A DNA stretch of 64,000 nt, taken from assembly GCA_964016885.1 (NCBI GenBank), contig OZ024750.1, forward strand, positions 54,312,001 through 54,376,000, written 5' to 3'. Position numbers and translations under genes: made by a program. Positions 37,808 through 37,819 of the stretch are shown here, piece by piece; position 1 is the stretch's first letter; each line of letters starts with the position of its first letter. Below the pieces are notes generated by a model. The model was not told where the DNA came from. It was given only the letters and a program-made list of their open reading frames with translations, and ran no database searches. The DNA comes from Eledone cirrhosa. Taxonomy: Eukaryota.

Positions 37808-37819
37808 GCCGAAATAGCT
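37808..37819 (-). promoter_or_regulatory. Non-canonical PBS complementary to tRNA-Phe nt 1-12
   Basis: AGCTATTTCGGC directly abuts the 5' LTR. The plus strand reads GCCGAAATAGCT, the recalled 5' end of eukaryotic tRNA-Phe(GAA). The paralog has AGCTATTTTGGT at 24056-24067. Confidence 0.7.

Follow-up and report, generated by a model that had tools for sequence, protein, structure and literature searches.

The window analysed here is a stretch of 64,000 nucleotides from the genome of Eledone cirrhosa (contig OZ024750.1, positions 54,312,001 to 54,376,000 of the forward strand), which carries on its minus strand, at 33928-38089, a long terminal repeat (LTR) element of 4,162 bp (about 4.2 kb). This element is an LTR retrotransposon, with paired TG..CA LTRs, a target-site duplication (TSD), a polypurine tract and a gag-pol region with reverse transcriptase (RT), RNase H and DDE integrase. 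Immediately 3' of the ..CCACA that ends its 5' LTR lies a 12-mer (37808-37819, minus strand), reading GCCGAAATAGCT on the plus strand and AGCTATTTCGGC on the strand of the element, which complements nucleotides 1-12 of the host tRNA-Phe(GAA) exactly. With a probability of roughly 80%, this 12-mer is likely to be the primer-binding site, at which a predicted 5' fragment of tRNA-Phe of 10-12 nucleotides would prime minus-strand synthesis. The observations behind this interpretation are the position of the site, its complementarity to the tRNA, its conservation throughout the lineage and the lack of an ordinary 3'-CCA site.

The 5' LTR (37820-38089, 270 nucleotides) and the 3' LTR (33928-34179, 252 nucleotides), both on the minus strand, run TGTGGGTA..TAACCACA; they agree in their first eight and last eight bases and in 231 of 252 aligned columns. 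AAGAC, a TSD of 5 bp, flanks the two ends of the element (5' copy at 38090-38094, 3' copy at 33923-33927, minus strand). Since the LTR pair and the TSD fix the LTR end independently of the motif, the spacing between the LTR and the 12-mer is 0 nucleotides, and the initial annotation, which had the motif directly following the LTR with no TGG, was right on this point. In contigs from public runs, unrelated flanks start at 37820, other leaders or subfamilies diverge from the reference exactly at 37808, and none of the variants listed at 5% or more falls inside the 12-mer. These contigs were obtained from four runs of one study, possibly the source of the window itself, and they therefore fix the boundaries without giving independent support.

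Between the LTRs, gag (36921-37679, minus strand) encodes two zinc-knuckle-like motifs and its frame is interrupted by a stop at 37446-37448. The pol region (34196-36920, minus strand), encoding protease, RT, RNase H and integrase, contains several stops and frameshifts, and its RNase H, at about 35164-35565, retains its four acidic motifs. The polypurine tract (34180-34192, minus strand) ends 2 nucleotides before the 3' LTR. The ends of the element are asymmetric in this respect, the corresponding spacing between the 5' LTR and the primer site being 0, which is relevant to primer length and to integrase processing.

The complementarity to tRNA-Phe(GAA) covers 12 of 12 positions in the host genome. 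A pattern joining the complement to its acceptor-stem partner across a gap gave 222 gene-like matches in this genome against 0 for the controls, and the one locus submitted to ARAGORN was called tRNA-Phe(GAA), in agreement with the start that the initial annotation gave for eukaryotic tRNA-Phe(GAA). By our own arithmetic, a 12/12 match to any of some 60 tRNA 5' ends has a chance of about 4 in a million. We also observed a long tandem array of tRNA-Phe genes in the host genome, with a spacing of about 1.26 kb (C4, about 117.36-117.54 Mb, L033-L036).

The 12-mer preceded by CA was found 527 times as an exact match in the host genome, versus once for the reversed-pattern control. Among the first 30 of these loci, 29 resemble the element, representing at least four subfamilies with differing LTR ends and leaders, and one (L021) does not. 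Thirty loci were chosen by Gag similarity alone: 24 carried the exact 12-mer, 4 a one-base change and 1 a deletion, and 1 was without an LTR hit. With two motif positions left free, the tRNA-matching letters were present in 98 of the first 100 matches listed (out of 522). An unrelated LTR-like family of the same genome (L365-L367, 9 matches) carries an ordinary 12-nucleotide site complementary to the tRNA-Phe 3' end, so that one genome holds sites mirroring either end of this tRNA.

The window contains a second element, internally deleted and belonging to a different subfamily, on the plus strand. It consists of the 3' part of a 5' LTR (23898-24055; its start is not fixed, and a repeat matching it lies at about 25158-25357), a decayed primer-site 12-mer (24056-24067, AGCTATTTTGGT, preceded by ..CTACA) and a broken gag and pol remnant (24186-25156) that is 65-75% alike to the first element. 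The two C-to-T changes in its 12-mer, which the initial annotation had noticed along with the differing LTR, are the most frequent ones in this subfamily, whose 12-mer is exact in 11 of 30 loci, has one change in 8, two changes in 6 and 3-5 mismatches in 5, some of these last being misplaced anchors. They were found at position 9 in 8 loci and at position 12 in 7, a pattern that would result from CpG decay. A partial second copy of the site, ending TTTCGGC, was observed in this subfamily about 30 nucleotides downstream of the primer site (window about 24080-24096, plus strand; L209, L223).

Conservation beyond the host genome was assessed on metagenome contigs scanned with Pol peptide patterns, the motif not being used for selection, which yielded 39 loci with 38-56% identity. 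The Gag N-terminus was detected in 18 of them, one of which begins at a contig edge, leaving 17 with upstream DNA. Upstream of gag, all 17 readable leaders exhibit ..ACA and then AGCTA-NNN-CGGC: 10 are exact, 5 have CG for TT, 1 has CC for TT and 1 (L096) has three changes. Two of the metagenome loci, L080 and L081, represent one family. The motif was also present in five loci devoid of a Gag hit, namely L069, L070 and L073 (one family, CC), L101 (exact) and L104 (CA); a decayed look-alike in L099 was left out of the counts. In L085, where an LTR pair fixes the LTR end at 1726, the first base of the motif is 1727. On each side of the motif, the neighbouring 30 nucleotides of 15 exact-site elements have an ungapped identity of just 0.30 and 0.28.

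All the site changes are located opposite nucleotides 5-7 of the tRNA acceptor stem, and none opposite nucleotides 1-4 or 8-12. In the RT-RNase H tree (21 rows), the TT state requires 3 changes and the CC state two, and one TT and one CG element are sisters with a support of 100/99. Short alignments led us to drop L096, L101 and L104 from this tree, and L082, L088, L096 and L104 from the integrase tree. The primer site thus flips time and again from one discrete state to another, which copying from a host primer would lead one to expect, although kin also cluster. RNase H alone gave 658 clusters at E<=1e-10. Named relatives comprise one cephalopod (Argonauta), one gastropod (Aplysia), three crustaceans (Petrolisthes, Oratosquilla and Palaemon), one sea spider (Nymphon) and one nematode (Trichuris); no relative was found in viral contigs.

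According to the mechanism that we propose, the element RNA, aided by the Gag nucleocapsid, would invade tRNA-Phe. As the site ends in seven bases identical to the tRNA's own 3' acceptor strand, it could displace this strand and then pair with nucleotides 8-12. The RNase H of the element may next cut the tRNA after U12, at the edge of the duplex, leaving the 3'-OH that extension requires there; alternatively, the fragment could be supplied by a host nuclease. The precedent of the Tf1 RNase H, together with four acidic RNase H positions that are invariant in 20 of 20 relatives, favours the enzyme of the element over a host nuclease at about even odds. RNase P has been proposed as the nuclease for the copia primer. 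Plus-strand synthesis would run off the 5' end of the primer at G1; such a run-off would make the match stop exactly there, giving the site its sharp downstream boundary, and would allow the site to be rewritten from the host tRNA and so to change state between hosts. The primer may be 10 nucleotides long rather than 12 if integrase trims two bases at the primer-site end. Priming by a 5' fragment of tRNA-Phe was the central proposal of the initial annotation. Its core withstood the three tests named with it, which bore on the conservation of the motif, the start of the host tRNA-Phe and covariation with a stretch inside the LTR, whereas the primer molecule, its length and the RNase H cut keep the status of predictions.

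Several points weigh against this interpretation. Its support is drawn from sequence, the primer, the strong-stop DNA and the small RNA being predicted. The 12-bp duplex between site and tRNA has a computed energy of -18.7 kcal/mol, which outweighs the 9.2 kcal/mol needed to open nucleotides 1-12 (from -23.6 to -14.4), but these values hold for unmodified RNA, ignore tRNA modifications and come from a computed fold differing from the true cloverleaf. Our search recovered no copies with a longer tRNA complement (nucleotide 13 onwards), its single match being unrelated. Additional pairing of the unique 5' region (U5) of the LTR with tRNA nucleotides 13-31 was tested and rejected, falling below 5% of shuffles in 0 of 15 elements (best 13 of 200). 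Element and tRNA come from one and the same host in the Eledone genome only, and the variant sites were not matched to the tRNAs of their own hosts. In phage and prokaryote collections, tRNA-Phe(GAA) genes with CG or TG at nucleotides 5-6 occur among 85 loci, GG at these positions corresponded to 1 Phe gene among 101 loci, and the three-change beginning to a Phe gene in 0 of 27 loci. In the same collections, tRNAs for Thr, Ile, Lys and others start with the variant 12-mers as well. Given this sharing, and since no Phe gene was found with the three-change form, the assignment to Phe is unproven for the variant sites. Moreover, the CG and TG tRNA-Phe genes come from prokaryote bins, some resembling host contamination and many archaeal, and not from identified hosts. 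These collections are not the hosts of the elements, so that they only show the variants to be valid tRNA 5' ends.

Prokaryote bins with tandem eukaryote-like tRNA-Phe genes (L117-L122, L135-L138, L143, L144) are probably cases of host contamination. Five bins with eukaryote-like tRNA-Phe genes were searched for the element, with just two hits in the integrase region, both without the motif.

Part of these results could be accommodated if the 12-mer paired with a different conserved host RNA, at its 3' end or at an internal cut, or if it served as a protein-binding signal whose likeness to tRNA-Phe is due to chance or ancestry. The variant 12-mers are indeed not Phe-specific in the phage and prokaryote sets, the pairing with the host was seen in one genome and the comparison was limited to tRNAs. 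We nevertheless consider this explanation distinctly unlikely: the match starts exactly at nucleotide 1 of the tRNA and is complete in the host genome, and the changes, which recur in the form of discrete states, spare nucleotides 1-4 as well as 8-12.

Self-priming, by a Tf1-style mechanism, by a U5 hairpin or from a spliced junction of the element RNA, appears very unlikely to us, even though U5 offers some arguments for it. By our reading of the folds, U5 can fold over most of the site in 6 of 25 elements (the window copy, L025, L029, L069, L082 and L104), and U5 words match the variant letters in L104 (8 nucleotides) and L082 (6 nucleotides). We read the latter as U5 adapting to a fixed site, though the result leans toward self-priming and is to be added to the points listed above against priming by the tRNA fragment. 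In the window element, the stretch able to fold back onto the primer site is GAGATAGCT (37833-37841, minus strand); it is confined to some subfamilies, and the motif is independent of it, which removes the covariation that the initial annotation had considered as a sign of a U5 hairpin. Under self-priming, the site would be expected to drift along with the LTR, and its fixity among unrelated LTRs argues against this mechanism. The best complement within up to 700 nucleotides upstream was 7-9 of 12 in 25 of 25 elements, some of these records containing just part of the LTR, and was never above shuffled sites (lowest 11 of 100). A splice-donor-like GGTAAGT (37842-37848, minus strand), about 28 nucleotides before the LTR end and kept in several subfamilies of the host genome, could favour the spliced form. 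However, an 11-12-nucleotide complement across GT/AG was detected in only 2 of 20 elements, and in each of these the acceptor lies upstream of the donor, inside the coding region. Tf1-type self-priming, U5 hairpins and spliced-junction priming were thus each tested and proved not general.

The donor-like word is of interest on its own account: it is kept about 27-30 nucleotides before the LTR end across otherwise divergent subfamilies of the host genome, and is present in just 2 of 19 metagenome elements. A role in suppressing polyadenylation in the 5' LTR is speculation.

Retrons prime from a 2'-OH branch. By analogy, the site could bind the 5' strand of an uncut tRNA-Phe, with priming from such a branch or from the freed 3'-CCA end at the LTR edge. 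The sequence evidence for this possibility is identical to that for a cut fragment, the cut product being predicted, and pairing with nucleotides 1-7 would release the 3' acceptor strand. Yet there is no conserved TGG near the junction, TGG occurring within 12 nucleotides of the LTR end in 0 of 20 elements; the complement of the tRNA 3' end is not conserved in these 20 elements either (at best 8-10 of 12 over the whole record), and the spacing of 0 nucleotides places U12, and not A76, at the LTR edge. Priming by an uncut tRNA is, on this evidence, unlikely. A bipartite site including the tRNA 3' end was also sought in the 20 elements and none was found.

The initial annotation had called the family Gypsy-like. 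The gene order and the integrase speak for this name, whereas the Pfam domains of a Gypsy-type RT-RNase H are missing and canonical Gypsy RT is barely detected by the family profile; membership in Gypsy is not established. Five full-length relatives exhibit, in Gypsy order, a zinc knuckle, an aspartic protease, a weak RVT_1, DUF7047, an RVT_3-like RNase H and the HHCC and rve domains. The order protease-RT-RNase H-integrase seen in the relatives is shared with BEL/Pao and retroviruses, and is therefore not diagnostic of Ty3/Gypsy. PF17917 and PF17919 were detected at E<=0.5 in 0 of the 5 full-length relatives, as compared to 100-120 bits in canonical Gypsy elements of the host genome, and the BEL/Pao marker Peptidase_A17 (PF05380) gave no hit in any of the 5. 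Searched against canonical Gypsy elements of the host genome, the family profile gave E-values of 1e-13 to 2e-7 for integrase, 0.005 or worse for RT and no hit for RNase H. Atlas neighbours, to be taken as leads only, were mostly Gypsy clusters for the whole protein, and unnamed molluscan and euglenozoan RT clusters for RT-RNase H alone. A structure model of a relative (pLDDT 74, pTM 0.44) matched retroviral and caulimoviral protease-RT folds at 10-18% identity, which confirms the domain folds without placing the family. The RNase H motif HINVAEL may resemble that of DIRS-type elements. No relevant paper was found under the group name Halcyon. With an RT-RNase H remote from canonical Gypsy and a Gypsy/retrovirus-like integrase (34196-36920, relatives P0007-P0126), the family is possibly chimeric or a separate LTR lineage.

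Elsewhere in the window, long GC-rich tandem repeats with a periodicity of 9-21 nucleotides, open in most frames, occupy 41029-48205 and 50200-51422. Pieces of another LTR-like repeat lie at 31589-33582; an inverted duplication occupies 31594-31774 within them, and a pair of short direct repeats is located near 33150-33225.

No report of a 5'-terminal tRNA primer was found in the full-text-searchable literature, a scope outside which lie Repbase, Dfam, subscription journals and preprint supplements, where prior annotation is possible. The exact 12-mer appears in work on tRNA methylation. The family motifs were absent from the 5 searchable supplements of PMC6238403. One primer-site pipeline is described as searching tRNA 3' ends only (PMC13524379), and pipelines limited in this way would miss 5'-end sites. 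If the proposed priming is true, it yields a sharp prediction for every host genome, namely that the site is the complement of its tRNA-Phe nucleotides 1-12, and 5' tRNA fragments would gain a direct role in retrotransposition. The lineage itself, with its 658 RNase H clusters, is large. A broader picture can be put forward tentatively, the odds being somewhat against it as a whole: a compact animal LTR lineage of hundreds of 50%-identity clusters, with an RT-RNase H apart from Gypsy and BEL/Pao, would capture tRNA-Phe by its 5' strand, cut a 12-nucleotide primer with its own RNase H (the Tf1 chemistry acting in trans) and have its site rewritten from the tRNA of each new host, thereby constituting a fourth priming mode.

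Drosophila copia and yeast Ty5 use half-tRNA priming. Three primer types are distinguished for LTR elements in PMC6317226, namely a whole tRNA, a half tRNA produced by a cut in the anticodon stem, and a self primer, half-tRNA priming being found there only in Ty1/copia lineages (Osser, Bryco, Gymco-II, Bianca); the literature consulted also included PMC3587641, PMC13191261, PMC3391268 and PMC8556966. With respect to whole-tRNA priming, a TGG-starting 3'-CCA site beside the 5' LTR was present in 0 of 20 elements. As in the half-tRNA priming of Ty1/copia, the primer would be a 5' fragment of a host tRNA rather than its CCA end, and the site has no TGG. In Ty1/copia, however, the tRNA is cut within the anticodon stem, and it is the middle of tRNA-Met or tRNA-Ile that the site mirrors. 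Here the site is not of this kind, in a comparison that did not extend to internal matches across a full host tRNA set; it matches nucleotides 1-12 of tRNA-Phe, up to the extreme 5' end, the implied cut is in the D stem and the element is not a copia. Priming by such a very short 5' fragment of tRNA-Phe would be a new variant among tRNA-fragment primers. The Conserved Hairpin Site of the fungal GalEa copia elements (PMC5445492) is likewise a conserved non-TGG sequence at the position of the primer site, but it is palindromic and pairs within the element, whereas the window site is not palindromic and matches a tRNA 5' end. The element shares with canonical Ty3/Gypsy (Metaviridae) gag followed by protease-RT-RNase H-integrase, TG..CA LTRs, a 5-bp TSD, a polypurine tract and a related integrase, and differs from it by its size of only about 4.2 kb, a DUF7047 thumb, an RVT_3-like RNase H in place of PF17917/PF17919 and its primer site. 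The Tf1 RNase H cuts the duplex of its own RNA between nucleotides 11 and 12, giving a 3'-OH, according to PMC7175516. As in Tf1/Tf2 (Tf1/sushi group), the site of the window element is short (12 nucleotides versus 11) and would pair with the nucleotides that open an RNA, and a cut at the edge of the duplex would free the primer, with RNase H as the candidate enzyme. Unlike in Tf1/Tf2, this RNA is a host tRNA acting in trans, the LTR of the element holds no complement and the site does not follow the LTR. A 5'-terminal tRNA primer of 10-12 nucleotides would, if true, add a fourth type to these three and form a mechanistic bridge between tRNA priming and the self-priming of Tf1.
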